Virus record (IMG/VR): IMGVR_UViG_3300031949_000082
Coordinates: 1-42,824 of that record
DNA: 42,824 bases
DNA from: a virus
Lineage: Duplodnaviria > Caudoviricetes
Reading direction: 5' to 3' (one strand)
A model generated the notes under the pieces. It searched no databases and was not told where the DNA came from. It saw nothing but the letters and a program-made list of their open reading frames with translations. Of the stretch, positions 7,339 to 28,242 are shown in pieces (the stretch's first letter is position 1; every line of letters begins with the position of its first letter). The position numbers and the translations under genes were made by a program.

Positions 7339-8611
7339 TTCCATCATCGCCGAATATCAGTCGCAGCCCTGGCTCATGGAACCGGCGGCCCTGGCGGCGT
7401 TCATCGAGCGGGTCGCCGGCCTGCCGGAGAATGCTTCGCTGATCGGCGTCGCCATCGAGCGCAAACCCGCCTTACTGGAAGTGGTCGGCGGCGTCGCCCG
7501 CATTCCCATAAATGGCGTTCTGCTCACCAAGGTCCCGGACTGGATGCGGCTGTGGAATCTCAACGTCACGGGCTACGACTGGATCGCCGAACAGGTCGCC
7601 GAGGCCTCCGGCCGCAAGGACGTCACTGCCATCGAGCTGGCGATTGACTCGCCCGGCGGCATGGTGGCCGGCGTCATGGGCGCCGCCGACGCGATATTTA
7701 ACGCCCGGCAAAACAAACCGGTTACGGCCCTCATCTCGAATCTCGGCGCCAGCGCCGCCTACTGGCTCGCCTCGCAGGCCCAGTCGATTGCGGCCGCCGA
7801 CGCGAATACACTCGCCGGCTCCATCGGCGTCTATAGCGTTTACGTCGATTGGTCCAAGCTCGAGGAACGGGTCGGGATCAAAGTCATCGTCATTCGCAGC
7901 GGCGAGCACAAGGGCATGGGAGTGGATACGATCACCGAATCGCAGATCGCCGCCGTCCAGCAGTATATCGACGCGACAGCCGGCAACTTCATCGCCGCCG
8001 TCGCCCGCGGCCGCGGCCGCACGACAGAAGAGATCGCCGAATACGCCACGGGCCAGTTGTGGATTGCCACAACGGCCCGGGAGAAAGGACTCATCGACGC
8101 CGTCATCGACGGCGCCCGACAAAATACGCCAACAGTTATCCAATCGCAAGGAGATCAATCTATGGAACCGAACCCAGCACAAACGGCGGACGTCGAAAAG
8201 GCCAAGAACGATGCCTCGACGGCCGCGCAGAACAACGAGCGCATTCGCATGTCGCAGCTCAGGACCGAGTTCGCCGATGACGCGGACTTTGCGATCAAGG
8301 CATTCACCGAGGGCTGGTCGCTCGAAAAAGCCAAGGCCGAATATTGCGGCGTTCTGCGCGAGAAGCTCAAAGACCAGGCCAAAAAGGCCGCCGAGAAACC
8401 GGCCGCCGGCGCCGCGGCGATCCCCGAGGCCGGCGCGGATGGTGTCACGCAGGGCGATTTCCTCGAAGAGGCCCGCGCGCTCGCGAAGGAAAAGGGCGTC
8501 ACCGTGACGGCGGCGATGAAGCAGTTGAACCGCCGCAAGCCCGGCCTGCACGATGCCTTCGTACAGCAATGCCAAAGCGAAGGCAAGCGGATGTACCAGG
8601 AAGCCTGCTGA
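7331..8611 (+). CDS. Prohead protease (S49, lambda gpC-like) with C-terminal scaffold region
   Basis: IDSPGG, ASAAYWLAS, GSIGV and FIAAVARGR motifs; ATG at 7331 after GAGGA. Confidence 0.9.
   Translation: MPNSIIAEYQSQPWLMEPAALAAFIERVAGLPENASLIGVAIERKPALLEVVGGVARIPINGVLLTKVPDWMRLWNLNVTGYDWIAEQVAEASGRKDVTAIELAIDSPGGMVAGVMGAADAIFNARQNKPVTALISNLGASAAYWLASQAQSIAAADANTLAGSIGVYSVYVDWSKLEERVGIKVIVIRSGEHKGMGVDTITESQIAAVQQYIDATAGNFIAAVARGRGRTTEEIAEYATGQLWIATTAREKGLIDAVIDGARQNTPTVIQSQGDQSMEPNPAQTADVEKAKNDASTAAQNNERIRMSQLRTEFADDADFAIKAFTEGWSLEKAKAEYCGVLREKLKDQAKKAAEKPAAGAAAIPEAGADGVTQGDFLEEARALAKEKGVTVTAAMKQLNRRKPGLHDAFVQQCQSEGKRMYQEAC
8162..8611 (+). CDS. Probable nested scaffold protein (Nu3-like internal start)
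   Basis: In-frame ATG at 8162 preceded by AAGGAGA; helical, Ala/Lys-rich sequence. Confidence 0.6.
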   Translation: MEPNPAQTADVEKAKNDASTAAQNNERIRMSQLRTEFADDADFAIKAFTEGWSLEKAKAEYCGVLREKLKDQAKKAAEKPAAGAAAIPEAGADGVTQGDFLEEARALAKEKGVTVTAAMKQLNRRKPGLHDAFVQQCQSEGKRMYQEAC

Positions 8612-8654
8612 AATAATTGTCAATTGTCAATGGAAAATTGAGAAAGGAGCATTT

Positions 8655-9119
8655 ATGGCAATCTATTCCAACAGTCCAAAGTCCGTCACGGCCGGCGCCG
8701 CGATTGCCGTATTCCTTCGCGTCAAGCTCGCCGCCCGGACGGCGTACCTGGCCGGGGCCTCCGATTACGGCGTCGGCACGGCCCAGCAAGCCGCCGGCTC
8801 GGGCGCTCGGGTTTCGATCCGGCTCTGGGAGCACGGCGGCAGCCACAAGTGCGTCGCGTCCGCCGCGATAGTCGCCGGTGCGAAGGTCTATGCCGCCGCC
8901 TCGGGCAAAATCGCCGCGACAGGGACATTGCTGATCGGAACGGCGCTGGACGCCGCCTCCGGCAACAACAGTGTGATCGAAATTTTGCCGCACCTGACCT
9001 ATAAACAGTCGAGCAGCTCCAGCAGTTCGAGCAGCAGTTCATCGTCTTCGAGCAGCTCCAGCAGTTCGAGCAGCAGTTCGAGCAGCAGTTCAAGCTCTTC
9101 GAGCTCAGCGGCGGCGTAA
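8655..9119 (+). CDS. Capsid cement/decoration protein (DUF2190-like) with 33-Ser C-terminal tail
   Basis: AAIVAGAKVYAAASGKI...IGTALDAASG motif, located before the MCP; Ser codons 9009-9107; RBS AAAGGAG. Confidence 0.8.
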   Translation: MAIYSNSPKSVTAGAAIAVFLRVKLAARTAYLAGASDYGVGTAQQAAGSGARVSIRLWEHGGSHKCVASAAIVAGAKVYAAASGKIAATGTLLIGTALDAASGNNSVIEILPHLTYKQSSSSSSSSSSSSSSSSSSSSSSSSSSSSSSSSSAAA

Positions 9120-9163
9120 GCAAACATTTAAGATTTCAGATTTGAAATTGAGAAAGGGACATT

Positions 9164-9547
9164 ATGACAAACAGCCCGTTCACCCTGACGGCCGGGGCCG
9201 CGATTGCCGCGTTTCTGCGCGTCAAGGCCTCTGGCCGGACCGGCTATCTCGCCGGGGCCTCCGATTACGGCGTCGGCACCGCCATCGAGGGCGTTGCCAG
9301 CGGCAAACAGGTGACCGTCCGGCTCTGGGAGCACGGCGGCACGCACAAATGCGTAGCCTCGGCCGCCATCTCGGCCGGCGCTAAAGTCTATGCCGCCGCC
9401 TCGGGCAAAATCGCCGCGACGGGGACATTGCTGATCGGGACCGCGCTCGACGCCGCCAGCGGCAACAACAGCGTGATCGAGGTGATCCCGCATATCGGGC
9501 ATACGCAGTCCTCATCGAGCAGCAGCAGCAGTTCGTCGACCGCATGA
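9164..9547 (+). CDS. Second capsid cement paralog with 10-Ser tail
   Basis: Near-identical core to 8655..9119; ends QSSSSSSSSSSTA. Confidence 0.8.
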   Translation: MTNSPFTLTAGAAIAAFLRVKASGRTGYLAGASDYGVGTAIEGVASGKQVTVRLWEHGGTHKCVASAAISAGAKVYAAASGKIAATGTLLIGTALDAASGNNSVIEVIPHIGHTQSSSSSSSSSSTA

Positions 9548-9611
9548 CAATGGATAATTGATAATTGACAATTGAGAATTGACAAAGGGGCAATGAAAAA
9601 GGAGTAAAACA

Positions 9612-10565
9612 ATGATTCAGAAATCAACTCACGCCGTGCCGCGAATGGACCTGGGCGTCGCGTTTCACGAGTACACGATGAGCAAGGTGCGGCTGATCGC
9701 CGACGCCGTGTTGCCCATCCTGCCGGTCGCCAAAGAGGCGGCCACGATGAGCGTCACCAAGCGAAAGAACCTGACTATCCCGGAGACCAAGCACGCCAAC
9801 GGGGCGACGTACAACCGCGTCGAGCTCTACATGGACGACCTGGCCTACGCCTGTGTGGACCACGGGCTCGAGGGACAGGTCACGGACCGCGATCGCGAGA
9901 AATACGCCAGCGATTTCGACGCCGAGGTCGAAAAGACGCAGGCGATCAAAACCAAGATGAGATTGGCCCGCGAAAAGCGGATCAAAGAGCTCGTCTTCAA
10001 TACGACGACGTGGACCGGCTCCGACCTCTACACGGATTACAGCAGCGCTCCCTGGGACGCCGCCGGAAGCGGCGTGATCGCGCAGATCCAGACGGTCCGC
10101 GAAAAGGTCCGCCTCAATTGCGGCGTTCCGCCGGATACGCTGATCATCAGCGAGACGGCGATGATCAATCTAACGAACAACACCGAGATCAAGGCCAAGT
10201 TCCCAGGCAGCCCGGCAATCACTGAGGCTATATTGCGGGGCAACATGGCGGCGATCCTGGGTATTCAGAATCTGATCATCGGCCAGGCGGTCTATAACTC
10301 CGCCGATGAGGGGCAGGATTTCACCGGGGCCGAGATCTGGCCGGACGATTACGCAATGGTCTGCGTCCTCGGCGCCGACGGTCTGCCGATGACCGAGCCC
10401 CAGTTAGGCCGGACGATTCTCTGGGAAGATTACATCTCCGACATCGAGTACGTCGAGTCATACCGCGAAGAGCAGACCAAGAGTGAAATCATCCGGGTCG
10501 AGCAAAGCATCGATGAGAAGATATTCGACGCCTACTTCGGCCACCTGATGCTGATTGATGCCTGA
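9612..10565 (+). CDS. Major capsid protein (lambda gpE-like)
   Basis: 317 aa in the MCP position; YACVDHGLE and LAREKRI motifs; RBS AAGGAG. Confidence 0.85.
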   Translation: MIQKSTHAVPRMDLGVAFHEYTMSKVRLIADAVLPILPVAKEAATMSVTKRKNLTIPETKHANGATYNRVELYMDDLAYACVDHGLEGQVTDRDREKYASDFDAEVEKTQAIKTKMRLAREKRIKELVFNTTTWTGSDLYTDYSSAPWDAAGSGVIAQIQTVREKVRLNCGVPPDTLIISETAMINLTNNTEIKAKFPGSPAITEAILRGNMAAILGIQNLIIGQAVYNSADEGQDFTGAEIWPDDYAMVCVLGADGLPMTEPQLGRTILWEDYISDIEYVESYREEQTKSEIIRVEQSIDEKIFDAYFGHLMLIDA

Positions 10566-11960: not shown

Positions 11961-12024
11961 AGGACAAATGGATAATTGACAATTGATAATTGACAATTGA
12001 CAATTAACAAGTAAGGAGATTACA

Positions 12025-12444
12025 ATGATTCTATACGGATGGACATTGACCGGCTCATCGAGCGGCGTTCTGGGCAAACTCACCAACATCAACTGGTCCG
12101 GGCTCAACGAGGACGAGATCGACGTCACCAACGCCGATTCCACGGACCAGTGGAACGAATACGAAGGCGGGTTTAAGGACCCTGGCATCATTCAGGCCGA
12201 TCTTTTATTCGATCCGGCCGTTCTTGAAACAATTATCGCCGCGTTTGCCGGTACAAACGAAACCTGGGTCCTTACCCGCGATACCAAGACGCTGACTGTC
12301 ACCGGCCACATTCGCAGTATCACACTGGCAATGCCGTTACGTTCCGCAGCGTCGCATCCGATTGAGATACGATGCAGCGGCCTGCCCGCGTTCCTGAGCA
12401 GCTCATCCAGCTCTTCCAGCTCTTCCAGCTCGTCGAGCTCCTAA
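12025..12444 (+). CDS. Tail tube protein ending in 15 serines
   Basis: IDVTNADS...EYEGGFKDPG tail-tube motif; C-terminus L-S15-stop; RBS AAGGAG. Confidence 0.8.
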   Translation: MILYGWTLTGSSSGVLGKLTNINWSGLNEDEIDVTNADSTDQWNEYEGGFKDPGIIQADLLFDPAVLETIIAAFAGTNETWVLTRDTKTLTVTGHIRSITLAMPLRSAASHPIEIRCSGLPAFLSSSSSSSSSSSSSSS

Positions 12445-12467
12445 CACACGAAAAGAAAGGATATTTC

Positions 12468-12908
12468 ATGCCCGAAAAATGGGTCGGCAAAGATGCTTTA
12501 TTCAAATCGCCCAAAAAAAAAGAGCGTCACACAATCGAGGGCCTCGGCGACGTCTGGATTCACTCCCTCACCTGCGGCCAGAAAGATGAATACGAGACGG
12601 CCGCATACCAGGTCATGGAGGGTACTCGCGAGGTGAAGATGCACCAGGCCAGGGCGCTGCTGATCCTCTGGACCGTCCACGATCAGCACGGCAATCGGCT
12701 GTTCGCCGACGCCGACCTGGGCAAGGTCGCTGCTATGGACTCCTGGATCGCTGAGCCGCTTTATACAAAAGCCAGGCGTCTGAGCCGCATGACGGCCGCG
12801 GACATGGATGAACTGGTAAAAAACTCAGGGACAATCCGGAGCGACGGCTCCGTTTCCGGATTGCAGCCGCCCTCGGATGGTCCTGCGCCCGGGTCGACGC
12901 CGAGTTAG
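12468..12908 (+). CDS. Tail assembly chaperone (G-like)
   Basis: Between tube and tape measure genes; DQHGNRLF; ELVKN slippery site. Confidence 0.8.
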   Translation: MPEKWVGKDALFKSPKKKERHTIEGLGDVWIHSLTCGQKDEYETAAYQVMEGTREVKMHQARALLILWTVHDQHGNRLFADADLGKVAAMDSWIAEPLYTKARRLSRMTAADMDELVKNSGTIRSDGSVSGLQPPSDGPAPGSTPS

Positions 12909-13141
12909 GGGCAGACGAGCAGGCGGAATGGCTGGCCCTGGAGTCGATAGAGCCGTGGGGCGAGAGACGGGCCGATTACAGGGCGGCCGTGACTTGCTGG
13001 GTAATCGCCAGTTGCAATTTTTCAGGCAAGGGCCGGCCGCCGCAGATGAAGGATTTCCTGAAGATGTTCGAGTTCACCGACAAATCCGTGCAAAGCGATG
13101 AAGAGGCGGATGAGATACTGACCAGGTTCGCGGGCAAATAA
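12818..13141 (+). CDS. -1 frameshift extension of the tail chaperone (GT-like)
   Basis: In-frame A-AAA-AAC at 12818-12824. The -1 frame is open to TAA at 13139-13141 and reads KLRDNPERRLRFRIAAALGWS...EWLALESIEPWGERRADYRAA. Confidence 0.85.
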   Translation, partial: KKLRDNPERRLRFRIAAALGWSCARVDAELGADEQAEWLALESIEPWGERRADYRAAVTCWVIASCNFSGKGRPPQMKDFLKMFEFTDKSVQSDEEADEILTRFAGK

Positions 13142-15397: not shown

Positions 15398-15847
15398 ATG
15401 GCGACCTTTCCGACGTTGACCAGGGCGGTTTCGCATCGCGGGTGGCAGGAATCGAAATTGATCGATCCCACCATACGCACGGAGTTCGTTTCCGGCGCCA
15501 TTGCAACGCGGGCGAGATTCTCGGGGACGGTCCCGGTGCTCTATCACGTGACGTATCATCACGTCTCCCCGGCGGATAAGGTTTTGCTGGAGACGTTCGA
15601 AAATTCGATCGACGTCGGCGTCACGACGTTCAACTGGACCAATATCCTGACGTCCACGATGTGGATCATGCGATTGAACGCGCCGATCCGGTTCGGCCTG
15701 GAGCCCAACTGCATCGACAAGTATTTTGCGCAGATCGAGATGTTCGGCTCGGCCGGCAGCTCGTCGTCCTCGTCGCTGTCATCGTCATCGTCCTCGTCGT
15801 CATCGAGCCTTTCTTCGTCGTCATCGTCCAGTTCATCGAGTGCATAA
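15398..15847 (+). CDS. Distal tail protein (gpM-like) with poly-Ser tail
   Basis: IRTEFVSG...TRARF...FNWTN directly after the TMP; ends S6-L-S10-L-S10-A. Confidence 0.7.
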   Translation: MATFPTLTRAVSHRGWQESKLIDPTIRTEFVSGAIATRARFSGTVPVLYHVTYHHVSPADKVLLETFENSIDVGVTTFNWTNILTSTMWIMRLNAPIRFGLEPNCIDKYFAQIEMFGSAGSSSSSSLSSSSSSSSSSLSSSSSSSSSSA

Positions 15848-16506: not shown

Positions 16507-16944
16507 ATGGAAGTCCCGCACATTAAAACCAAACTCAATTTGTCCGAATTGATCGGCAGGCCGTATAAGGTCGCCGGCCGTGGTCCGGCGGATTATGACT
16601 GCTGGGGCCTTTGCATGGCGGTGGCGGAAAAACTGGGGTTCCCATTGCCTGATTTTGAGATTCCGCAAAATAACGATTTGCGAGGCGAATTAGTGGATCG
16701 GCAGCGGGCAGGGTCATTCAATCGCATCGATGAGCCATCCGGCGGATGTCTGGTGCTATTTCGCGTTATCGACGACCATGATCTGATTAAATGGCATGTC
16801 GGTACGATGCTGCCCGATTGCAGGCATTTTATCCATACGACCGAAAAGATGGGAGTCAATATCTCCGCCCTCGACCGCCAGCCGTGGAAACTGTTTGTCG
16901 AGGGCTTTTACGTCAATTGTCAATTGAACACTGATCGAATATGA
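16507..16944 (+). CDS. NlpC/P60 tail assembly protein (gpK-like)
   Basis: GRPYKVAGRGPADYDCWGL, WHVG, FIH. Confidence 0.85.
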   Translation: MEVPHIKTKLNLSELIGRPYKVAGRGPADYDCWGLCMAVAEKLGFPLPDFEIPQNNDLRGELVDRQRAGSFNRIDEPSGGCLVLFRVIDDHDLIKWHVGTMLPDCRHFIHTTEKMGVNISALDRQPWKLFVEGFYVNCQLNTDRI

Positions 16945-19160
16945 ATAAAGAATTGAAGATCATTGTTATCCGCAATCCTTTCGACGTTCAGAGGGACCGC
17001 CTCATCGAATCCGTGCCGTTCACCGGCCAGAGGCTCAGTGACGTTCTCAGACACTATGCGGCCGAGATGGAATGCGTCATTGTCCGGATCAACGGCGTCA
17101 AGCTGCCGGCCGTCGAGAAGGACGAATATCAGCGGGCCCTTGCCGCCGGTGACGAGATCGTCATCCTGCCCGCAGTCCGCGACCCGATCAGCGGAATCAT
17201 GGGCGTCATGACCTGGGTGGCGGCATCAGCGGGCTATGCGGGTATCGGGGCAATGCTCTGGTCCGTCGCCGTCAGTATAGGCATCTCGATTGGCGTCGCC
17301 TACCTCATCCGGGCCATCGGCGGATCGCCCGACGACGCCGATCTTGACAGCACTCCTTCCTACGGCTGGTCGCCGGCGACGATCCAGAGACAGGGCACGG
17401 CGATCCCCCGGGCTTACGGCGCCAATAAGCAGCACGGCAACATCATCGCCGCATGGCGGACGCCGGACGGCGCCGATGAGACGCTGAGCCTGCTGATCGC
17501 CTTCGGCGAGGGCCCGGACTACGGCATCGTCGCCGATACGGTCTATCTCAATGGCCAGCCCATCGGCAATTACGAATCGGTGACCACCTACGAGCGCAAA
17601 GGCCTGATGGAGCAATCCGCCATATTCGCCGCGCTCAAATGCGAGTATCAGCCCGAGCTGGAAGTGCTGCATACCTCCGATGGGGGAGGGCCGGTCACCT
17701 GGACCACGCCGGACAATGATTTCGATTCGCTTGAGATTGCCGTCAAATACAGCGGCCACTACGTACACAAAGACGGCGGAATAAAAACCCAAACCGTCGA
17801 CGTGAAGATCGAAATATCGGAAAACGGCGCCGAGGATTGGTACGTTCTGGCCGACGAATCGCTTTACTGCGGATCGACTCCGCTGCAGAAAAACTACGTC
17901 TCGACCGGCGCTTATACCGGCGGCTCGCCCGTTTCGATTACCAAGGGAACGCGCTGCGACATCCGGATTACCAAGACCAGCGCGGGTAGAACCTGGGACG
18001 GGAGCCGCAAGAGCCGGTACCTGTATATTACGACGGTCCGCGAGGTGATCGGCACGCCCTTCGAATATCCCGGCCTCTCGCTCCTGGGAATCTCCGCCAT
18101 CGCCACCGAGGCCCTGAGCGGCGCCCTGCAGGTCTCGTGTATCCGCAAGGGCCGCATCGTCAACGTCTATAACGGCTCGGCCTGGACGCTGGAATGGTCC
18201 GACAACCCGGCGTGGGTGATCTGGGACATCCTGACCCGGCCGGTGATTTCGGGCGACGGCGGCGGGACGCCTTATGCCGTAGAGCGCTATGACGGGATCG
18301 ACCCGGCGCGATTGACGCCCTATCTGGACGAATGGTACGAGGCGGCGGCGTATTTCGATGATCAGATCACGGACGGCAAGGGCGGCTATGAGAAACGGAT
18401 TCTGTTCAACGGCGTGTTCGACTTTGGAACCACCGTCTGGGACGCGGTCGCCAAGGTGTGCGCAATCGCCCGCTGCGAGGTGCTTCGGATCGGCCGTAAT
18501 TATACCATCCTGGTCGATAAGCCGGACGCGGCGGCCCCGGTTCAGCTTTTTTCCGCCGGCAATATCAAGCCGGGGAGTTTCCGCAGAAACTATATCGACC
18601 TCACCGACCGGGCCGGGGAATTGGAAATAGATTATCAGGACCTCGACCTCGATTACGAGATGACGCCGATGCTCCACGTCGATACGGCCATCGACAGTCA
18701 CGCGGCCAAGACCATTTCAGGATTCGGCATCACGCGCGCCTCGCAGGCCTGGCGGGCCGTCTATTACGAGCTGGCGAAAAACCGGATTCTCAAATATATG
18801 GTCGAGTTCGAGGCGGATATAGACGCCATCGCGTGCAAGAAAGGCGATATCGTCTATGTGGTGGAGCCCTGGCGACTCGGCGGCCGGGTTGTCGCCAGCA
18901 CCGCCGCCGATAAGGTCACGCTCGACGTCCCGCCGGCGGTGAGCGGCGCCGATACCGTGGCCGTGCGGGTCAATCATCCCGATACGGGCGCCGAGACGGT
19001 CGAGACGCATACGGTCGCCTCCGTCGCCGGGGCGGTCGTGACGATAGCCGACGCCTGGAGCGTGACGCCGAAAAGGGACGATCTCTACGCATTCGGCCCT
19101 ACGGCGACCATCCTCAAGAAGTTCCGGGTGGTCGGGATCGTCGAAGGAGCGGAGCTGTGA
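16941..19160 (+). CDS. Central tail-tip / host-specificity protein (gpI+gpJ-like), C-terminally truncated
   Basis: N-terminal ubiquitin-like gpI region; IPRAYG, WSDNPAWVIWDILT, LFSAGNI, GITRASQAWR; stops right after FRVVGIVEGAEL. Confidence 0.85.
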   Translation: MNKELKIIVIRNPFDVQRDRLIESVPFTGQRLSDVLRHYAAEMECVIVRINGVKLPAVEKDEYQRALAAGDEIVILPAVRDPISGIMGVMTWVAASAGYAGIGAMLWSVAVSIGISIGVAYLIRAIGGSPDDADLDSTPSYGWSPATIQRQGTAIPRAYGANKQHGNIIAAWRTPDGADETLSLLIAFGEGPDYGIVADTVYLNGQPIGNYESVTTYERKGLMEQSAIFAALKCEYQPELEVLHTSDGGGPVTWTTPDNDFDSLEIAVKYSGHYVHKDGGIKTQTVDVKIEISENGAEDWYVLADESLYCGSTPLQKNYVSTGAYTGGSPVSITKGTRCDIRITKTSAGRTWDGSRKSRYLYITTVREVIGTPFEYPGLSLLGISAIATEALSGALQVSCIRKGRIVNVYNGSAWTLEWSDNPAWVIWDILTRPVISGDGGGTPYAVERYDGIDPARLTPYLDEWYEAAAYFDDQITDGKGGYEKRILFNGVFDFGTTVWDAVAKVCAIARCEVLRIGRNYTILVDKPDAAAPVQLFSAGNIKPGSFRRNYIDLTDRAGELEIDYQDLDLDYEMTPMLHVDTAIDSHAAKTISGFGITRASQAWRAVYYELAKNRILKYMVEFEADIDAIACKKGDIVYVVEPWRLGGRVVASTAADKVTLDVPPAVSGADTVAVRVNHPDTGAETVETHTVASVAGAVVTIADAWSVTPKRDDLYAFGPTATILKKFRVVGIVEGAEL

Positions 19161-19166
19161 ACGCAG

Positions 19167-19226
19167 GTGACAATGGATAATTGATAATTGATAATTGACA
19201 ATTGACAATTGTCAATTGAAGTAATT
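19167..19226. repeat. Heptamer repeat block between the J-like gene and its apparent continuation
   Basis: TGACAATGGATAATTGATAATTGATAATTGACAATTGACAATTGTCAATTG; a similar block lies at 19505-19551. Confidence 0.9.
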
Positions 19227-19505
19227 ATGAGCAGGAAACTGACACTGATCGAGTACGACGAGGATATTTACGACGGCGATGATATGGAGCCGAATATCCA
19301 GGACCCGAATTACTATAACGCCGCCCAGGGCGGCGAACCGGCCGCCACGGCCGCCGAGAGACTCGAGAGCGACCGCGTGGATGCCAAGATCGAAGTGCAG
19401 CTTTCGGACCTGCACGATTACCTGATAGGAATATCGAGCAGTTCCAGTTCTTCATTTTCGAGTTCGAGCTCATCGAGCAGCAGCTCATCGAGTTCCGGGG
19501 CATAA
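19227..19505 (+). CDS. Tail-tip module 1: RKLTLIEYDE strand plus poly-Ser tail
   Basis: N-terminus is paralogous to that of 19552; ends S7-F-S13-GA. Confidence 0.65.
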   Translation: MSRKLTLIEYDEDIYDGDDMEPNIQDPNYYNAAQGGEPAATAAERLESDRVDAKIEVQLSDLHDYLIGISSSSSSSFSSSSSSSSSSSSSGA

Positions 19506-19551
19506 TGGATAATTGACAATTGTCAATTGTCAATTGTCAATTGAAGTAATT

Positions 19552-21078
19552 ATGACGCGAAAACTAACGCTAATTGAATATGACGAAAATGTGTTCGCCG
19601 GCGACGATATGGAGCCCGCGATTCAATTTCGCGAGCAGCTTGGCTCGGTGACGGGCCAAAGGGAACTCGGCGATAGAGAGTTAGAGACTACCGATATCGC
19701 GGAGATTGCCCGGCGGATCGAGGACATGCGGGTGTATGCCAGGGTGATATCGAGCTCATCGAGCGAAAGCTCCTCGAGCAGCACGCCGAGCGAGGAGCTG
19801 TTCGAGCATCACGAGACGGGCGGCGATTCGTCTTATACCATCGGCCAGACCGGCTACGCCCAAATACTCGCTCAGACCTTCACGCCGGATATTGCGCACC
19901 GGATATCGAGAGTGGAACTGGAATTATTCGATCAGCAGGGCAACGGTTTGACGGGCGACATTGCTATCGAGATCAAGGCGACCGACGTCGACGGCCTGCC
20001 CACCGGCCTGGCCCTGGCCGGCGGGACAATCGACGCGGCCGATCTCAATCCGGGCCATTATACAGATGTGTACAATAACATCTATAGATCAGGCACGGGA
20101 GGAACGAGTTATTTGTTTGAGGTTTGTTTTTCCCAGGATGGCCTTCACATGTATTCGATCAGCTATAAGAGTAGCTGGGGCAATTACGGCATTCATCATT
20201 ATATTTTGTCCGCGGCCTGGGACATTACAACGGCGTCATTGGCCGAATCGCACGAGCTTGATGACTGGGGACATGGTTCGTATTTCTTTTTCGCCGCCGG
20301 CACCGGCTACACGGGAATATTTCTCAAGCCCGACGGCACGCGATTGTATATCGTAGGCAACCTTACGTCTTATGGCAGTTACATTTGGAGAATTGACCTC
20401 GACACGCCGTACTATATCGCTTCGGCGACACCCTACATCGCCCAGGATTTGTTTGCAACTCAACAGCAATATTCATGCTGGTTTAACGATGAGGGAACAC
20501 GCCTTTTTACGGCTGACAACTTTAACGATGCCATCTTTCAATACAATTTATCGACGCCCTGGGACCTCACGACATTTTCATCGACGCCGAGTCAGAGTAC
20601 GAGCGTTTCGGCCTATACCAACAGTACACATGGCGTCGCATTTAGCGCCGACGGTCTGAAGATGCAGGTTATCGATGCCCAGAATCACAAAATACTCTTC
20701 TGGAATTTATCGACGGCTTTCAATCTGTCTGGCGAATCGAAGGATTCCTATGAAATGGACATCTCGGACATAATGACAACGCCGGCCGGATGCTATACGA
20801 AAGACAATGGAAAGACTTTCTTTGTTTGCGATGGCAGTGTATCTGCTCTGACGGTCCATCGCTTCGATCTGCCCGCCCTGCACGGCGACTGGCACAGTTG
20901 CGATTTAGGCGCCGGTGACGAGCTGGCAGCCGCGACCCAGTACGCTTTGTGTGCAAGCTATGCGGATTACGAGGACGGGGTCAGCGAGCCGGAGTGGGTC
21001 GATAACGAGGACGGCGACGACAATTACGCCGCCGGGACGCTGCTGCGCTATGACGGCAGCGACTGGTACGACAGTTAG
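19552..21078 (+). CDS. Tail-tip module 2: RKLTLIEYDE strand, Ser linker, beta-sandwich with inserted beta-propeller-like repeats (putative receptor-binding protein)
   Basis: Repeats YILSAAWDITTA, IDLDTPYYIASA, YNLSTPWDLTT, WNLSTAFNLS with F-x-x-DG motifs; AQTFTP...YAL sandwich segments flank them. Confidence 0.65.
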   Translation: MTRKLTLIEYDENVFAGDDMEPAIQFREQLGSVTGQRELGDRELETTDIAEIARRIEDMRVYARVISSSSSESSSSSTPSEELFEHHETGGDSSYTIGQTGYAQILAQTFTPDIAHRISRVELELFDQQGNGLTGDIAIEIKATDVDGLPTGLALAGGTIDAADLNPGHYTDVYNNIYRSGTGGTSYLFEVCFSQDGLHMYSISYKSSWGNYGIHHYILSAAWDITTASLAESHELDDWGHGSYFFFAAGTGYTGIFLKPDGTRLYIVGNLTSYGSYIWRIDLDTPYYIASATPYIAQDLFATQQQYSCWFNDEGTRLFTADNFNDAIFQYNLSTPWDLTTFSSTPSQSTSVSAYTNSTHGVAFSADGLKMQVIDAQNHKILFWNLSTAFNLSGESKDSYEMDISDIMTTPAGCYTKDNGKTFFVCDGSVSALTVHRFDLPALHGDWHSCDLGAGDELAAATQYALCASYADYEDGVSEPEWVDNEDGDDNYAAGTLLRYDGSDWYDS

Positions 21079-21109
21079 TGTTTATTCGTGTTCATTCGTG
21101 GTTTGAATT

Positions 21110-21820
21110 ATGGGTCAGCAGCTCTATACACCGGGTCAATTCGGCAACTGGCCGGCGCCTTTCGCCGGCGAGTGTCTCGTGGAGTGCTGGGGCGGCGGCG
21201 GCACGGGCGGCGGCGGGGCCAACGGCAACGGCACCGGCGGCGGCGGCGGCGCGGGCGGTCAGTACGCATCCAAGACGGTCACCGTCGTCAAGGGCCAGAA
21301 TTATTACTATTCCGCCGCGGCAGATCGGGCCGGGGTCGGAAAGGCCATCAACGGCAATGCGGGCTATAACAGCTATTTGGGTCCACCCGGCGATCCGTTG
21401 GTCCTCGCGGTGGGCGGCTCGGGCGGCCTGGCCTACGATAACGGCGGCACGGGCGGCCAGGGATCGATCACGAACGGCGTGGGTGATACGGTCTATGCCG
21501 GGGGCAGCGGGGCCGATTCAGCCGCCGGCTACGGCGGCGGAGGCGGCGGCGGGGCCGGTTCAACCGGTGCAGGCAACAGCGGTTCCGGCTCGACGGGCGG
21601 GGCGGCCAAGGCGGACAACGGCGGGGCCGGCGGCAACGGCTACGTCGGAAATACCGGTGACGGCTCGCCGGGTGAAGACTACGGCGGCGGCGGCGGCGGA
21701 GCTACCAAGGCCGGTATCAGCGGCGGCGGCAACGGCGGCTATATAAAGATCACGTGGGAAAACATCGCCGGGAGCAAATACGATTTGAATTTCAGAGAGT
21801 ACGGCTATCGATTGGAGTAA
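21110..21820 (+). CDS. Glycine-rich phage tail-associated protein
   Basis: VECWGGGGTGG...GGGGGAGGQY...GGNGGYIKITW pattern. Confidence 0.75.
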   Translation: MGQQLYTPGQFGNWPAPFAGECLVECWGGGGTGGGGANGNGTGGGGGAGGQYASKTVTVVKGQNYYYSAAADRAGVGKAINGNAGYNSYLGPPGDPLVLAVGGSGGLAYDNGGTGGQGSITNGVGDTVYAGGSGADSAAGYGGGGGGGAGSTGAGNSGSGSTGGAAKADNGGAGGNGYVGNTGDGSPGEDYGGGGGGATKAGISGGGNGGYIKITWENIAGSKYDLNFREYGYRLE

Positions 21821-22135: not shown

Positions 22136-22780
22136 ATGAACACGAATGAACTCGAATCAGTGCAATCTGTGAAATCTGTGGCGAATTTTCCAACATTCGA
22201 GCAATGGATCGGGATCGTGCCCAAGCCGGGCGATTTGGCTCACTACCGCCGCCGGAACTTCTACGATTATTACAAGATCAAATTCGAGATCGCCCTCGGC
22301 GCACGCCCCTCGGCGATCTGCGAGATCGGCGTGCGCTGGGGCTATTCGGCCTTTTCGTTCCTGTCCGCCGCGCCGGCGGCCGCCTACACGGGCTTCGATA
22401 TCGTCGAAGGCACGCACGGCGGGGTCAGGGGGACCGACACGTTCGCCTACGTCCGTGACTTTCTCGAAAAGCATTTTCCGCAGGCCCGCATCGAGCTTCG
22501 CCACGCCGATACACGTCTGCTGACGGAGCTGCCGTGCGGGCCATTCGACTTCGTCCACGTGGACGGCGACCATTCCGAGGCCGGGTGCGCCCACGATCTG
22601 TGCCTGGCCATGGACGCCCTGGAGCCGGGCGGGACGATCCTGGTCGATGACTACCACTATATCGCGGGCGTCCAACGGGCGGCGGACGTATTCTGCGACG
22701 ATCGTGCCGCGGACATCGCCGAGAAAATCGTCCGCGATTCGCTGCGAGGCGAATTGCTCATCGTCAAAGGAGAGAAATAA
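22136..22780 (+). CDS. Class I SAM-dependent methyltransferase (Methyltransf_24-like)
   Basis: EIGVRWGYS, FDFVHVDGDH, GGTILVDDY. Confidence 0.85.
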   Translation: MNTNELESVQSVKSVANFPTFEQWIGIVPKPGDLAHYRRRNFYDYYKIKFEIALGARPSAICEIGVRWGYSAFSFLSAAPAAAYTGFDIVEGTHGGVRGTDTFAYVRDFLEKHFPQARIELRHADTRLLTELPCGPFDFVHVDGDHSEAGCAHDLCLAMDALEPGGTILVDDYHYIAGVQRAADVFCDDRAADIAEKIVRDSLRGELLIVKGEK

Positions 22781-22896
22781 TGGATAATTGTCAATTGTCA
22801 ATTGAAAGTCGTCAAGTGACAATGGACAAGGGACAATGGAAAATTGTCAATCGTCAATTATCAACTGTCAATTGTCAAATAAGGAGGCCCTGAGAA

Positions 22897-23388
22897 ATGA
22901 TCAAGCTGCGTCCCTCGATAGAAGTCGTTCGCCATTGCTGCCCGGCGCCCGTGGCCGGGGCCGAGATCGGCGTATTGGGCGGAGGGCACGCCGTGACGAT
23001 GCTGCGCAATTTCCCCGAACTGAAGATGCTTCATCTGGTCGATTCTTACGGCGGCGTCAGCGAGCAGGATCGCAAGGTGATCGAGTTCAAGAATCGTTTC
23101 GCCGCCGAGGCCGACCGGATCGCCTGGCATATCCGAACGTCTCTGGAAGCCGCTACGGAGTTTCCGGATGCCTGCCTGGATTTCGTCTATATCGACGCGA
23201 ATCATCGGTACTTCGAAGTTGCGCAGGACATCCGGGCGTGGTGGCCGAAGATCAAAGCGGCGGGCCTGTTATGCGGGCACGATTATTTCAGTCACGGCTC
23301 GGTCAAACAGGCCGTCGACGACTGGGCCAAAGAGTTCAATCATTACATCTTTTCAACGGCGCCCGACTGGTGGTGCTTCAAGGAGTGA
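22897..23388 (+). CDS. Class I SAM-dependent methyltransferase (Methyltransf_24-like)
   Basis: AEIGVLGG, LDFVYIDANH, WWPKIKAAGLLCGHDY; RBS AAGGAGG. Confidence 0.85.
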   Translation: MIKLRPSIEVVRHCCPAPVAGAEIGVLGGGHAVTMLRNFPELKMLHLVDSYGGVSEQDRKVIEFKNRFAAEADRIAWHIRTSLEAATEFPDACLDFVYIDANHRYFEVAQDIRAWWPKIKAAGLLCGHDYFSHGSVKQAVDDWAKEFNHYIFSTAPDWWCFKE

Positions 23389-23389
23389 C

Positions 23390-23974
23390 ATGGATATCGA
23401 CTATAAACAAATCATCAAGGACAGCAACGGTCGCATCGCCGTCGAGGACCTGCAGCTCCTGGAGCGGGCCTGCGATGCCTGCCGGGCGAAGAATATCCTC
23501 GAGATAGGCTCCGCCGACGGCGGCTCGTCGGTGGTATTAGGGACAAAGGCCAAAGAGCGAAACGGCCATCTGTGGTGCATCGAGCCGCGGCCGAAACAAC
23601 GGATGCTTGACAACATGGCGACATACGGCCTTGAGGGACATTATACACTGATAGCCAAACCGTCACCGTGGATATCGCTCACCGAATTGTCGGGATTTAT
23701 CGATCTGCTCTTCATCGACGGACGGCACGATCTTCGATGGTGCCTGGTCGATTACCACTACTTCGAGCGTTTTGTCCGCGTCGGCGGCGTCATCGTCTTT
23801 CACGACACGAACGGCCATTGCCGGGAGGACCGCGTTCAGCCGGACTATGGCCGTGAAGGTTACGTGCCTTTGGTCCGTCGGGCCATCGACATCATCCTGA
23901 CGACGGATCCCCTGATCGAGATCGACCGGTCCGACGCCAAAATGGGCGGAGCCATCGCATTCAGAAAGCAATAG
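23390..23974 (+). CDS. Class I SAM-dependent methyltransferase (Methyltransf_24-like)
   Basis: LEIGSADGGS, IDLLFIDGRH, GGVIVFHD; ATG at 23390 after AAGGAG. Confidence 0.85.
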   Translation: MDIDYKQIIKDSNGRIAVEDLQLLERACDACRAKNILEIGSADGGSSVVLGTKAKERNGHLWCIEPRPKQRMLDNMATYGLEGHYTLIAKPSPWISLTELSGFIDLLFIDGRHDLRWCLVDYHYFERFVRVGGVIVFHDTNGHCREDRVQPDYGREGYVPLVRRAIDIILTTDPLIEIDRSDAKMGGAIAFRKQ

Positions 23975-24026
23975 GGAATAATGGATAATTGACAATTGAT
24001 AATTGACAATTGTGAAGGGAATCATT

Positions 24027-24908
24027 ATGAACGTCCTCGTCACCGGCGGCTCGGGATTCATAGGCCGCCACGTCTGTCAAAACCTGCTCGACCGGGGCCA
24101 CCATGTCCTTGTCTATGACGTCGCTAAGCCTTTCTTGCCGGGCGTCATTCACATGAGCGGCTGTATCCAGGACAAAAGCAAGCTCTGGTCCGCCATTGAG
24201 ATATCCGATGCCGTGATTCACCTGGCCGGCGTCTTAGGCACGGCCGAGACGATTGAGGATCCACTGCTGCCGATCAATGTCAATATCATCGGCTCCGTAG
24301 ATGTGTTCGAGGCCTGCCGGCGATTCGATAAGCCCGCCTGTTATATCGCCGTCGGCAATCACTTCATGAACAATTCCTACGCGATCACCAAGACGGCCGC
24401 CGAGCGATTCGCCCTGATGTACAACGCCGAGCATGGGACGCGGATCGCCGTCGTGCGCGGCCTGAATGCCTACGGTCCCTGGCAGAAGCACAAGCCGGTC
24501 CGCAAGGTGATTCCGAACTTCGTCATCCCGGCCCTGAAAAACGAGCCGATTATCATTTACGGATCGGGCGGGCAGATCATGGACTTCATTTACGTCGCCG
24601 ACCTGGCGGAGATACTCTGCAGGGCACTCTTGGAGGATCACGGCTGTTACAACCGCGTCATGGAGGGCGGCAGCGGCCGCCGCACCACGATCAACCACGT
24701 TGCCGAGATGGTGATTCGCCTGGCGGGATCGCTCTCAAAGATCGAGCATCACGCCATGCGTGGCGGCGAGACGAGTGATTCGGTGGTCGTGGCCGATGTG
24801 CGGACCCTCGCCCCGCTGCGGTATTCGCCCGGGACCATGGTGTCTCTCGAAGAGGGCCTGGCCCGAACCATCGACTATTACAGAACAAATCCGGAGCAAT
24901 ACGCATGA
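24027..24908 (+). CDS. NAD-dependent nucleotide-sugar epimerase/dehydratase
   Basis: VTGGSGFIG, HLAG, catalytic YAITK, NAYGP, DFIYVAD. Confidence 0.92.
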   Translation: MNVLVTGGSGFIGRHVCQNLLDRGHHVLVYDVAKPFLPGVIHMSGCIQDKSKLWSAIEISDAVIHLAGVLGTAETIEDPLLPINVNIIGSVDVFEACRRFDKPACYIAVGNHFMNNSYAITKTAAERFALMYNAEHGTRIAVVRGLNAYGPWQKHKPVRKVIPNFVIPALKNEPIIIYGSGGQIMDFIYVADLAEILCRALLEDHGCYNRVMEGGSGRRTTINHVAEMVIRLAGSLSKIEHHAMRGGETSDSVVVADVRTLAPLRYSPGTMVSLEEGLARTIDYYRTNPEQYA

Positions 24909-25618
24909 ATTGTTATTTTTTCACCTACGTCGATCTGAATCCGAAGTACCTCGCCGAGGCCGATATCCTGATCCGGTCCGGGCGGCGGTTCGGCCGTGAC
25001 ATTCATTTGTTCGAGATCCCCGACGGCGCGATGTGGAATCGCTATAAGGTGGAGCTGCTCGCCGGCGACCTGCCCGAGGCCGATCGTTACATCTGCCTCG
25101 ATGGGGACACAATCATGACGGGTCCCGGCGATTGGGAAAGCGACGATTGCCGGGGTGTGATGGACATTCTCTATTACATGAATGAGCCGGACCGGCTCAA
25201 GCATACCCATGCCTTCATCAAGAATCACACGCTGCTGGACGGCGATCCGGGCGCTTACGAGTTCATTCTCTCGCTCTGGCGAGAGCGGCAGTGTCCGATC
25301 TGGCCGAACAGCGGCGTTGTAATCCTCGACGCCTCGATCCGGCTGCCGTTCGCCGGGTTATGGAAACAATGGATGGCGGCAATCGATTCGCATTGCGACA
25401 AGGGCTATGTCGTCGGGGACGAGGCGCCGTGTACGTTCGCCCGGGCGGAGTTCGGCCTGCCGCTGCTGCCGCCGCGATTCAACGTCTGCCTCAAATGGCA
25501 GCCTATGCCGCCTGATGCCGTGCTGCTGCATGCCGACGGCAACGTCACCGGCGAAAAACGCATCCCTTATAACCGGGCCGTGGAGGACCTGATCGCTTAT
25601 GAACGAAGTTGCGGATAA
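24905..25618 (+). CDS. GT-A fold glycosyltransferase (GT8-like)
   Basis: YICLDGDT (DxD), NSGVVI, GDEAP, LPPRFN, LLHAD. Confidence 0.7.
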   Translation: MNCYFFTYVDLNPKYLAEADILIRSGRRFGRDIHLFEIPDGAMWNRYKVELLAGDLPEADRYICLDGDTIMTGPGDWESDDCRGVMDILYYMNEPDRLKHTHAFIKNHTLLDGDPGAYEFILSLWRERQCPIWPNSGVVILDASIRLPFAGLWKQWMAAIDSHCDKGYVVGDEAPCTFARAEFGLPLLPPRFNVCLKWQPMPPDAVLLHADGNVTGEKRIPYNRAVEDLIAYERSCG

Positions 25619-26327
25619 ATCGTCAATCACTTTTCCGTCCTGGCACGGCGAGTTCGGCTGGGAGGTGATGACCTGGGCGCCGTTCTGCCGCCTGGCGGCC
25701 CATGGCCGTGATCGGGTAGTCGTAACCAGTTTCGAGGGGATGGGTCCCTTATATGCCGATTTCGCAACCGAATTTATTTCTCATGACGGGATCGGACGGG
25801 CTCTGAATTATCCGAAGCACTACAGGCTCAAGGGCGATTTCTATCGCTACGGACGCCCGGGCGACTCGAAATACTCCTGCAATATCCTGGTCCACGCCCG
25901 CGGCATTCGCCGCAAATCCAATATCAACTATCGAAACTGGCTCGATGCCGTCATGCTCCTGCCGCAGGCATACACCGTCGGGTGGATAGGCTCTGCCGAT
26001 GACGATTATATATCCTGCACCGGCCTGGACCTGCGCGGTCTCAAGCTGCAGTCGCTGATGGACCTGATCGCCCGGGCGAAGGTCGTTGTGGGCGTCAGCT
26101 CCGGCGTCATGCACTTAGCCGCCGCCTGCGGAACGAACATTGTCACGTGGGGCGACCGCCGGACCTATTTCGGCGAGACCCTCGAACGGCGATACAAAGT
26201 CACATGGAACCCGCACAACGTCCGGGTCGGCTGGATTGACGCCGACGACTGGCAGCCGCAGCCGGAACGGATCGTCGAAGAAATCGAAAGGATGCTTGAA
26301 AATGGAACCACGAATGAACACGAATAA
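25599..26327 (+). CDS. GT9-like glycosyltransferase
   Basis: GEFGWE; DLRGLKLQSLMDLIARAKVVVGVSSGVMHLAAACG. Confidence 0.75.
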   Translation: MNEVADKSSITFPSWHGEFGWEVMTWAPFCRLAAHGRDRVVVTSFEGMGPLYADFATEFISHDGIGRALNYPKHYRLKGDFYRYGRPGDSKYSCNILVHARGIRRKSNINYRNWLDAVMLLPQAYTVGWIGSADDDYISCTGLDLRGLKLQSLMDLIARAKVVVGVSSGVMHLAAACGTNIVTWGDRRTYFGETLERRYKVTWNPHNVRVGWIDADDWQPQPERIVEEIERMLENGTTNEHE

Positions 26328-28242
26328 AATGGATAATGGACAATTGACAATGGAAAATGGAGGTATCCCGAATCGTCAATCGTCAATTGTCAATTGCAGA
26401 GTCTTACTGCGCAACACCCAGCCGCTTTTAGGAGATCGGCTGATGTTCACGCCCCTGGTTCGGGATCTCAAAAAGGCCCATCCGGATTGGCAAATTGGCG
26501 TGCTGTCCGCCGGGCCGGAGATATGGCTGAATAATCCGCACGTGGACTTTTCAATCAACGAGGCGAACGCCGACAAAATTTACGACGTCGGGCCGGGCAA
26601 GGTCACGCGGGGCAGTAAGACCAACGGGCTTCATATCACGGCGGCTTTCCGCTGCTCGCTGGAAGAGCAGTTGGGCGAAACCATCCCCCAGGGTCCCTTC
26701 AAGCCGGACGTTTACCTTTCGGACGCCGAGAAGGCCCACCGGCTCATCGCCGGTGACTATTGGGTCATCAATTGCGATACGGGTCCGTTCACCGCCAAGC
26801 GATGGCCGCTGGAGCGGTTCCAGGCCGTCATCGATGCGATGCCGGACCTGATGTTCGTCCAGGTCGGCTTAGGCAAGGATTGCCGCGGGCGGCTGACGGG
26901 CCCTAATGTCATCGATCTGATTGATAGAACCAAGGTCCGCGAACTCTTCAGTCTTGTCTATCATGCCCACGGCTGCATCAGCCTGGTCAGTTCTCTGATG
27001 CACGTTGCCGCCGCCTTCGAGAAGCCCTGCGTGGTCATCGCCGGCGGCCGCGAGCCGCCTACGTTCGAGCGGTACGCTTATCATCGCTTTATCGACAACG
27101 TGGGCTGCCTACGCTGCTGCAGGATGCAGGCCTGCTGGCATAACGCATTATCCGCCTGCAAGGACCATGACGGCAATTACGCCCGGTGCATGAGGCTCAT
27201 AGAGGCCCCTGACGTTGTCTCCGGCTTGCGATCCTATTATCGGGGCGGCAGGCTCGAATCGCCCAAGTCTCTCACAGCCACGGCCAAGCTGAGACCCTTG
27301 CTTCGAATCGTGGCGAAAGGTTCGTTCTTAGGCGGGGCGGAACGGTCCTGGACGACGATTGCCCGTCTGTTCGTTAAAAATAACTGGCGGGTCGAGATTT
27401 CGCCGCCGGAGCCGCTGAATCCCGCCGTAGCGGCGCAACTGCCGCCGGAGGCCGTCGTAACGAACCATCTGTCGCGCCCCTGCGACGTGCTGCTGTTCTA
27501 CGCCTCGGACCTGGTCTTCGGATTCGACGATCCCCGATATGAGATTTTCAATCGCATCGACGCCGGCCGCAAAGTCATGGCCTTGACGTATAAGATCGGC
27601 AAGGCGGGCGAGTCGCCCTGGACGGAGGGCTGGGACCGGTATTTGTTCCTGTGCTCGGCGCTTCGCGATGTCTTCGTTAATAAATCGAATCGCTGTGAAA
27701 CGCAAGTTCTCGCGCCGTGCGTGGATCTCGAGCCGTTCCTGGCCGTCCGGCCGGACTACGAACAATCGTCAATCCATTTAGTCCGTCACAGTTCCCAGGG
27801 CGAGAAGAAGTACCCGATGGTGGATTTGCTGCAGATCGTTCAGCACACATCGGCGAGGTATAGTTTCATGCCGAGGCCGGCCATCCTGCCGGAGCGGTCG
27901 CATTCAACGCCCTGGTCCGACGATCCGAAAGCGGTCGCCGCGTTTCTCGCATCGGGCAATTGCTTCTGGTACCTGCTGCCGGAGGGCTATACCGACCAGG
28001 GACCGCGGGTGATTGTGGAGGCCATGGCCGCCGGCCTGCCCGTCATCGCCGAGAACCGGGACGGCGCCAAGGACCGCGTGACGCCCGAGGCCGGCTGGCT
28101 CCTGGATTCGCACGGGCAGGCTGCAGAGTTAATCAATGGCTTAACCCCGGCGATCCTCGCTGAGAAAGGCCGGGCCGCCCGCCGGCGGGCGATGGAAGAA
28201 TTCAAACCCGAAAAATGGTTCGAGGCGATTAAAGGAAATTGA
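26314..28242 (+). CDS. Two-domain glycosyltransferase (GT9-like + GT4-like)
   Basis: LGDRLMFT, KRWP, SSLMHVAAAFEKPCVVI; then LGGAERS and DQGPRVIVEAMAAGLPVIA. Start uncertain (26302/26314/26329). Confidence 0.85.
   Translation: MNTNKMDNGQLTMENGGIPNRQSSIVNCRVLLRNTQPLLGDRLMFTPLVRDLKKAHPDWQIGVLSAGPEIWLNNPHVDFSINEANADKIYDVGPGKVTRGSKTNGLHITAAFRCSLEEQLGETIPQGPFKPDVYLSDAEKAHRLIAGDYWVINCDTGPFTAKRWPLERFQAVIDAMPDLMFVQVGLGKDCRGRLTGPNVIDLIDRTKVRELFSLVYHAHGCISLVSSLMHVAAAFEKPCVVIAGGREPPTFERYAYHRFIDNVGCLRCCRMQACWHNALSACKDHDGNYARCMRLIEAPDVVSGLRSYYRGGRLESPKSLTATAKLRPLLRIVAKGSFLGGAERSWTTIARLFVKNNWRVEISPPEPLNPAVAAQLPPEAVVTNHLSRPCDVLLFYASDLVFGFDDPRYEIFNRIDAGRKVMALTYKIGKAGESPWTEGWDRYLFLCSALRDVFVNKSNRCETQVLAPCVDLEPFLAVRPDYEQSSIHLVRHSSQGEKKYPMVDLLQIVQHTSARYSFMPRPAILPERSHSTPWSDDPKAVAAFLASGNCFWYLLPEGYTDQGPRVIVEAMAAGLPVIAENRDGAKDRVTPEAGWLLDSHGQAAELINGLTPAILAEKGRAARRRAMEEFKPEKWFEAIKGN
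26335..26396. repeat. 62-nt hairpin-forming element, identical to 35315..35376
   Basis: Exact duplicate including the non-repeat core AGGTATCCCG; arms CAATTGACAAT / ATTGTCAATTG. Confidence 0.85.

Follow-up and report, generated by a model that had tools for sequence, protein, structure and literature searches.

The viral contig IMGVR_UViG_3300031949_000082 (Duplodnaviria; Caudoviricetes) raises the question of how a tail tip can be built when the gene of its central protein ends inside a core domain. The window analysed here is the whole contig of 42,824 bases, which carries a lambda-like head and tail module. Its lambda gpJ-like tail-tip hub gene, here called J (16941..19160; the genes, spacers and strands of this locus all lie on the plus strand), is followed by two open reading frames (ORFs) that open with almost the same peptide. 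An earlier note on this DNA had described the J stop, the two starts reading (S/T)RKLTLIEYDE...GDDMEPxIQ and a shared stretch of 25 nucleotides (nt), all of which are present in the sequence. With a probability of about 60%, we take J to be a split hub into which two paralogous proteins, encoded by the two following genes, dock in trans, sharing the three slots of one tail tip.

The hub gene and its break

J encodes 739 residues with a gpI-like part fused to the N-terminus and was identified by PHROG, its family profile and the C-termini of its homologues. It matches phrog_31 (E 4.7e-98) and PF13550 (E 5.4e-09), and the profile of its family matches lambda gpJ (E 5.5e-66) as well as gpI (E 8.1e-08). 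Both sequence and fold contain the HDII-insertion, FNIII-A, hub domains II to IV (HDII-IV) and the OB fold, which J has in common with lambda-type hubs, and PF05100 and PF00877 are found upstream, in a neighbourhood of tape measure, distal tail, gpL, gpK (NlpC/P60) and gpI. The order of distal tail, L, K and J is the same as in the lambda tail tip gpM-gpL-gpK-gpI-gpJ (8IYK, 8K35, 8XCG; PMC10721106 and the available part of PMC11101478), T1 gp33 (9L9P) and the hubs of F-type pyocins. Unlike in lambda, gpI is fused to the N-terminus of J, the chain ends before the last strand of hub domain IV (HDIV), and the linker and the distal part come from two paralogous genes. A single chain leading from HDIV through a linker, FNIII domains and a shaft to a receptor-binding domain is not found here, and J is a split variant of the lambda gpJ-like hub, not a full central fibre.

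HDIV has the tail-tube fold with an OB insertion and is followed by a linker to the distal tip (PMC10721106; available parts of PMC13455828 and PMC11101478). The J ORF terminates with FRVVGIVEGAEL-TGA, at the turn of the last hairpin of this domain. That the break falls inside a beta-hairpin had been suggested in the earlier note, and the unsplit relatives bear this out, as they continue in register: the unsplit sister P0017 reads GGEF/SHKISCEIYD..GGDDLEPDI where J and the first following gene, module 1, read GAEL/(M)SRKLTLIEYD..GDDMEPNI, the slash marking the break. In the AlphaFold2 model of P0017 (mean predicted local distance difference test score, pLDDT, 79.8), the residues 722-731 and 736-743 form strands with the break at the turn between them. 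This model matches lambda gpJ (8K35) with a Foldseek E-value of 4.3e-43 and with a VIA Z of 24.8 at a root-mean-square deviation of 4.6 over 545 aligned residues, reaching model residue 755. Since its alignments to the hubs of lambda, T5, GTA, Mu and VgrG reach residues 743-765, beyond the break, the missing strand is part of the conserved core of the hub. No counterpart of the distal domain that the unsplit relatives carry was detected in the window, where the single match had an E-value of 0.23.

In the alignment with unsplit homologues, carried out as the earlier note had proposed, the relatives continue across the break. Of 63 homologues of J residues 380-739, 16 have an identity of 73% or more, counting the window's own protein. 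All of these end at the break and form one clade nested among unsplit relatives, with a support of 100 in the Shimodaira-Hasegawa-like approximate likelihood ratio test (SH-aLRT). The sister of this clade consists of the unsplit proteins P0017 and P0018 (SH-aLRT 84); the tree contains 49 of the 63 homologues and was obtained by a short search. The downstream genes were counted in 19 loci (16 distinct at 95% identity), after leaving out L007 and L019, which have no J end, L008, which equals the window, the duplicates of regions kept (L009, L011-L013, L029-L032, L035) and the relatives unsplit at the break (L023-L028). The gene after J opens with the missing strand in all 19 loci, and a second strand-bearing module follows in 15 of them, the other four contigs being cut 124-739 nt after the J stop. 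In these 15 informative loci the order of the modules is never swapped and there is no third module. In this group of uncultured phages, the split is a single, old and conserved gene fission and not a recoding event.

The A+T-rich repeat with stops at the break could also suggest a gene that is broken or misassembled and whose pieces are decaying. However, the same break recurs in 16 proteins and 19 loci, and the ratio of nonsynonymous to synonymous divergence (dN/dS) is far below 1 for both modules. Relative to the window it amounts to 0.11-0.45 for module 1 and 0.11-0.35 for module 2, omitting pairs with saturated dS (4 of 16 and 3 of 13, respectively), which indicates purifying selection. 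In addition, three contigs of run X1, which may be the source sample, tile positions 17500-21183 with 0 differences, so that there is no assembly error as far as the contigs show. The probability of decay is practically negligible.

In another group of the family, the J proteins P0020-P0029 (loci L023 and L024), the hairpin is kept and the chain ends about 70 residues later, at 805-820 residues. The gene after J in L023 (737-3923) resembles the distal continuation of longer relatives; the region in L024 is 6001-9964. This group represents a second fission site, apparently likewise adjoining a beta-strand, and the J family has accordingly split its distal part more than once.

Two modules and their predicted docking into J

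Module 1 (type 1; 19227..19505) encodes 92 residues, which comprise a putative donor strand, a linker, a helix and a poly-serine tail (19434-19496); it begins with the ATG at 19227 and reads MSRKLTLIEYDE..GDDMEPNIQ. Module 2 (type 2; 19552..21078) encodes 508 residues and begins with the ATG at 19552, reading MTRKLTLIEYDE..GDDMEPAIQ; here the putative donor strand, linker and helix are followed by a serine linker (19750-19782) and a beta-rich domain with an inserted beta-propeller. When module 2 was modelled alone, the first 50 residues had low confidence, followed by the helix, the serine linker and the propeller inserted in the beta-rich domain. The propeller (about residues 185-438; 20107..20868) is the most variable part among the relatives and presumably binds the receptor.

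First and second modules fall into two clades with a support of 100/100, and they are old paralogues, kept as separate genes in a fixed order. The helix of type 1 carries L-H-x-Y-x-x-G-I in all 16 sequences and that of type 2 I-E-D-M-R-x-Y-A in all 13, and at one position of the helix core a large residue in type 1 stands opposite Ala in type 2. What follows is variable: in relatives, type 1 can carry an F5/8 type C domain (P0068, E 1.6e-07) or a laminin-G-like domain (P0076, E 1.2e-10), and the type 2 cargo spans about 230 to 508 residues. A profile of the N-terminus, run against 1.84 billion proteins, gave 13 clusters (50% identity) at E <1e-10, with lengths of 48-504 and varied cargo, in each of which the motif stands at residue 2-3; three weak matches were unrelated repeats. 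No longer or fused forms of module 1 were retrieved in a search that, however, also missed the known longer relatives P0065 and P0068, and the ESM Atlas gave no usable match.

The two N-termini are alike at the protein level, since within the first 20 residues of the window's modules only 5 of 14 shared residues have the same codon, and the 25-nt leader is a local feature. Over the first nine residues, the strand motif is more similar within a genome (0.74) than between genomes (0.68; permutation p 0.0003, the loci not being independent). In all 34 modules, the start codon (ATG or GTG) precedes the strand by four codons, and the second residue is small (S, A, G, T or P) in 33 of them. As a rule, methionine aminopeptidase removes Met before a small second residue, and it would fit this pattern if the loss of Met restored the register of the strand.

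The complex of J 415-739 with residues 1-66 of module 2 was predicted with a score of 0.76, compared with 0.01 for the best of three controls; the mark set for this score is reached by 116 of 157 solved complexes and by 2 of 215 mismatched pairs. At least 61% of the contacts are common to the runs, and the pLDDT of the partner is at least 49. The contacts with the lowest error place module 2 residues 4-9 in the middle of the sheet, between two predicted acceptor strands, J residues 620-624 (MVEFE; 18798..18812) and 727-730 (KFRV; 19119..19130), the latter being the hairpin partner in unsplit relatives. The predicted interface with J comprises module 2 residues 1-24 after Met (19555..19626), of which residues 4-9 would be the inserted strand. 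A prediction of this kind, with the N-terminal peptide, had been proposed in the earlier note, as had the supply of the missing strand in trans, to which both the result for module 2 and the conserved separate starts point. We consider it likely that the strand of a module docks in J in trans.

The earlier note had also offered another idea, namely that the block between J and module 1 is removed or bypassed at the DNA, RNA or ribosome level. From the J stop to the start of module 1 there are 66 nt (19161..19226), or 69 with the stop of J, and module 1 is indeed in frame with J; the separation of 69 nt with four stops given in that note holds only if J's own stop is counted in both. This spacer contains a block of palindromic heptamers (19169-19217), a generic intergenic repeat inserted in the lineage of the window, and leads into the first copy of the 25-nt leader (19206..19230). 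The second spacer (19506..19551, 46 nt) holds a second heptamer block and the second, identical leader copy (19531..19555). The leader is common to both modules and absent from the closest relative L001, and its part GAAGTAATTATG has no other occurrence in the window. A relic GTG overlaps the J stop (19157..19180) with a Shine-Dalgarno-like site of -8.4 kcal/mol; relatives use it as the start of module 1, but in the window the frame that it opens is only 7 codons long.

The heptamer pattern has 22 matches in the window versus 0.5 in 50 shuffles, and each of the 14 located before position 26400 is no more than 60 nt away from a gene end, so that the block is not specific to the J junction and incidental to the split. 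Across the 19 loci the stop-to-start gap is -4 in 11, -1 in one, +8 in two and +27, +46, +48, +58 and +66 in one each. The commonest junction is an ATGA or GTGA overlap of stop and start, the spacer sequences are mutually unrelated repeats, J stops with TGA or TAA, and the gaps fall in all three frames. In L001 the two junctions have gaps of -4 and +1 nt, without the shared 25-nt site. An early hint from the window, L002 and L005 that the spacers are kept in frame was discarded, as only three of the seven positive gaps are multiples of three. Each of the two modules pairs with an anti-Shine-Dalgarno motif at -0.9 kcal/mol, J at -1.3 and the terminase gene at -1.1; the modules thus lack a strong ribosome-binding site, as had been claimed, but this is not peculiar to them.

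The repeats themselves are not confined to this locus. Short tandem repeats of several unrelated kinds stand at gene boundaries and differ between close relatives (22 sites in the window; spacers of L002, L003, L005, L010, L014 and L017), and the same heptamer block occurs in many other contigs of the runs X1 and X2 and is widespread in those samples. At 39519-39553 of the window, a heptamer block lies in frame just before a ParB-like domain and is either translated or indicative of where the gene really starts. Just upstream of the start of J and overlapping it (16914-16946), another block is followed by TLIEYE-stop in another frame; this stretch shares 11 identical nt with module 1 (19242), by chance or as a relic copy.

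T4 gene 60 bypass and -1 programmed frameshifts are known types of recoding, and here, in the window only, a stop and a hairpin likewise stand between the halves of an ancestral gene. Joining of J to a module by the ribosome or by RNA processing (bypass, frameshift, readthrough or splicing) would yield fused chains and could explain the in-frame module 1 of the window, its spacer hairpin (z -3.15), the weak ribosome-binding site and the recurrence of J's last codon, CTG, at codon 5 of module 1. However, unlike in the known cases, no gap, frame, matched codon or slippery site is conserved over the 19 loci. The block is missing in 11 of them and 12 have no gap at all; matched take-off and landing codons occur in none of the 19 when the codon preceding the start or the start itself is considered, and in one of the 19, the window itself, when codon 5 is. 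A slippery heptamer within the last eight codons of J occurs in 0 of 19. The frames, the unrelated spacers and the use of both TGA and TAA speak against joining as well, and the start lies at one position in 34 of 34 modules. No stem-loop is conserved, either: the z-scores are -3.15 and -3.90 in the window, -2.56 in L010, -1.96 (weak) in L017 and +0.62 in L002, which has no hairpin. Palindromic heptamers fold by construction. Rfam gave no match, which counts against recoding. Such joining is very improbable.

Alternatively, the module after J might be switched, or fused to J, if the 25-nt repeats recombined or the heptamer block were excised from the DNA. Two identical direct repeats do span both starts, and one joint from 19210 to 19505 was indicated in contigs of run X1. 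Because the J stop lies upstream of the repeat, no recombination between the copies yields a fusion, whereas excision of the spacer between its flanking TGA triplets leaves a stop/start overlap as in the relatives, which is still split. An in-frame recombination site, as in site-specific switching of tail fibres, is not found; the repeat lies beyond the J stop and is absent from L001 and others. No recombinase or reverse transcriptase was named among the best five PHROG matches of the 48 ORFs scanned, of 229 listed. The contig joint was rejected as a repeat mis-mapping, as it comes from the far end of a 7242-nt contig that begins at another heptamer block, near 11970. We regard DNA switching as extremely improbable and, taken together with recoding, as quite improbable, and the modules are discussed below as separate proteins.

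Composition of the tail tip

In the proposed mechanism, HDIV of J would be left one strand short, and the N-terminal strand of each module would insert there in trans. By analogy with lambda, the linker of the module would run to the distal tip. The type-specific helices would join in a bundle of three, mixed 2:1 or 1:2, and take the place that the helical shaft and the FNIII cone have in intact gpJ. Beyond the serine linker, the cargo (a propeller, an F5/8 type C or laminin-G-like domain, or nothing at all) would bind the cell surface and could be exchanged without touching the hub. Assuming three slots as in lambda and joint expression of the two donors, one would by default expect mixed tips, and the invariant helices of each type suit a heteromeric bundle. 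Co-assembly appears to fit the fixed order, the type-specific helices and the cargo domains of some type 1 proteins better than an either/or arrangement. A more specific form of this reading, to which we give somewhat less than an even chance, is a donor-strand socket in which each of three hub subunits would have a slot open in the middle of its HDIV sheet and two non-interchangeable paralogues at a fixed ratio of 2:1 and with complementary helices would form an obligate heterotrimeric plug, breaking the threefold symmetry and displaying swappable adhesins on probably glycosylated linkers.

The earlier note had seen the modules as alternatives, a short cap or a long receptor-binding module. 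One short and one long module are indeed present here, but both are kept in all 15 informative loci, and the division into cap and receptor module is not fixed, as type 1 can carry F5/8 type C or laminin-G-like cargo. If docking in trans is real but all three slots of a virion receive the same module, the phage would make particles of two types, which differ in their tips. Lambda gpJ is a homotrimer (PMC10721106), the invariant helix of each type could favour self-assembly, and both modules bear the same strand motif, more alike within than between genomes. On the other hand, co-expressed subunits competing for three equal slots would be expected to mix unless they are sorted, no locus with a single module or a swapped order exists among the 15 informative loci, and type 1 is without cargo in most loci, which would leave particles lacking a tip adhesin. 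Two particle types are considered less likely than a mixed tip, but they are a serious rival to it.

During the assembly of chaperone-usher pili, the donor strand of the chaperone is exchanged, and module 1 could similarly be a temporary placeholder that stabilises J until module 2 takes its place. It is usually short and free of cargo, and in 11 of 19 loci it is coupled to J translationally by the 4-base overlap. However, the cargo domains of type 1 in P0068 and P0076 speak against a placeholder, and the serine tail, which is also found on the capsid cement, tail tube and distal tail proteins, points to a component of the virion. This explanation is rather improbable, and a mixed tip remains the preferred reading.

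In the pili, the incomplete Ig-like fold of a pilin is completed by a donor strand from the N-terminus of another chain. Here, the N-terminal strand of a second chain is likewise predicted to complete a fold that lacks one strand (0.76 versus 0.01, which may reflect intact hubs). In contrast to pili, the acceptor HDIV has the tail-tube fold and not an Ig fold, the donors are not paralogues of the hub and would not polymerise, and there are two donor types for three slots. The pairing of J and module would work like donor-strand complementation without being a member of that class. A precedent for splitting a hub domain is found in lambda, which divides one domain of T5 pb3, the HDII-insertion, between gpL and gpJ, and whose gpI binds gpJ by beta-sheet augmentation (PMC10721106). 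Two paralogues, a short one and one with an extra C-terminal domain, also form the capsid cement of T1, where, according to the available part of the source, one gp48 and two gp49 co-assemble 2:1 as a heterotrimer at a threefold site (PMC11945409). There, whole-domain trimers of the capsid are concerned and not strand insertion at a tail tip, which makes T1 an analogy for stoichiometry only. The accessible portions of PMC13612043 and PMC13252515 describe other tips without such a split. Titles and the beginnings of abstracts, with subscription journals mostly missing, yielded no published account of a hub that has lost a central strand through such a cut and has two paralogous donors for it.

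Several points weigh against a mixed tip with docking in trans. The complex score may stem from the likeness to solved intact hubs, the fold of the partner is uncertain (pLDDT 50-53), and the prediction concerns the module 2 pair only; as the halves of a split gene can pass by resembling solved hubs, it shows fit and not binding. In the window, the heptamer hairpin extends to the start codons and the ribosome-binding sites are weak, so that expression of the modules in this genome is only assumed. The small second residue may simply be inherited, as the unsplit sister also has Ser there. Finally, nearly all loci were retrieved with J or a module of the window as the query, which biases the sample towards close relatives.

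Genome setting and significance

The genes of the window follow the order terminase, portal, protease, two cement paralogues, capsid, tail tube, tape measure, distal tail, gpL-like, NlpC/P60 and gpJ-like. Annotated phages have less than 30% identity among the best 25 of 1309 matches, and two scans of genome contigs for relatives, intended for host assignment, found none. The cement paralogues (PF09956; 8553-9547) are a tandem and thus a second duplicated structural pair, which recalls T1 gp48/gp49. At 12372-13101, a tail assembly chaperone gene is followed by an overlapping short ORF and then by the tape measure gene.

After module 2, a glycine-rich gene (21110..21820, plus strand) comes next in the window, L001, L002, L005, L006 and L014; it has no Pfam or PHROG match. 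It accompanies the module 2 form of about 500 residues in all six, whereas L018, L033 and L034, whose module 2 is shorter, lack it at this position. Its distribution makes it a possible partner of the cargo of the longer form.

Poly-serine C-terminal tails are not special to module 1 but also occur on both cement paralogues, the tail tube and the distal tail protein; the tails and a long Ser/Glu array lie at 9009-9107, 9509-9538, 12397-12441, 15758-15841, 19434-19496 and 29984-30580. The enzymes encoded at 22136-28242 are GT9, GT9+GT1, an epimerase and three Methyltransf_24 genes, with two GT9 domains and one GT1 domain. In mycobacteriophages, virions are glycosylated by phage glycosyltransferases according to the available parts of PMC11256854 and PMC12363180. 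Serine tails beside glycosyltransferase, epimerase and methyltransferase genes may be a lead to a glycosylated virion.

If the proposed reading is true, siphophage hubs of the best-studied kind can obtain a core beta-strand of their tail-tube fold from a separate protein, and duplication of this strand donor would turn a homotrimeric tip into a mixed one. One particle would then likely carry two different, swappable tip proteins, which would illustrate how a tip with threefold symmetry can present one or two adhesins that are bulky and monomeric. A different way of closing and opening the tip is also predicted, since nothing here corresponds to the FNIII cone of lambda. The pair of modules is small enough for work with recombinant proteins. 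For the evolution of these phages, it would mean that gene fission inside a domain makes a natural exchange point for the parts that recognise the host.

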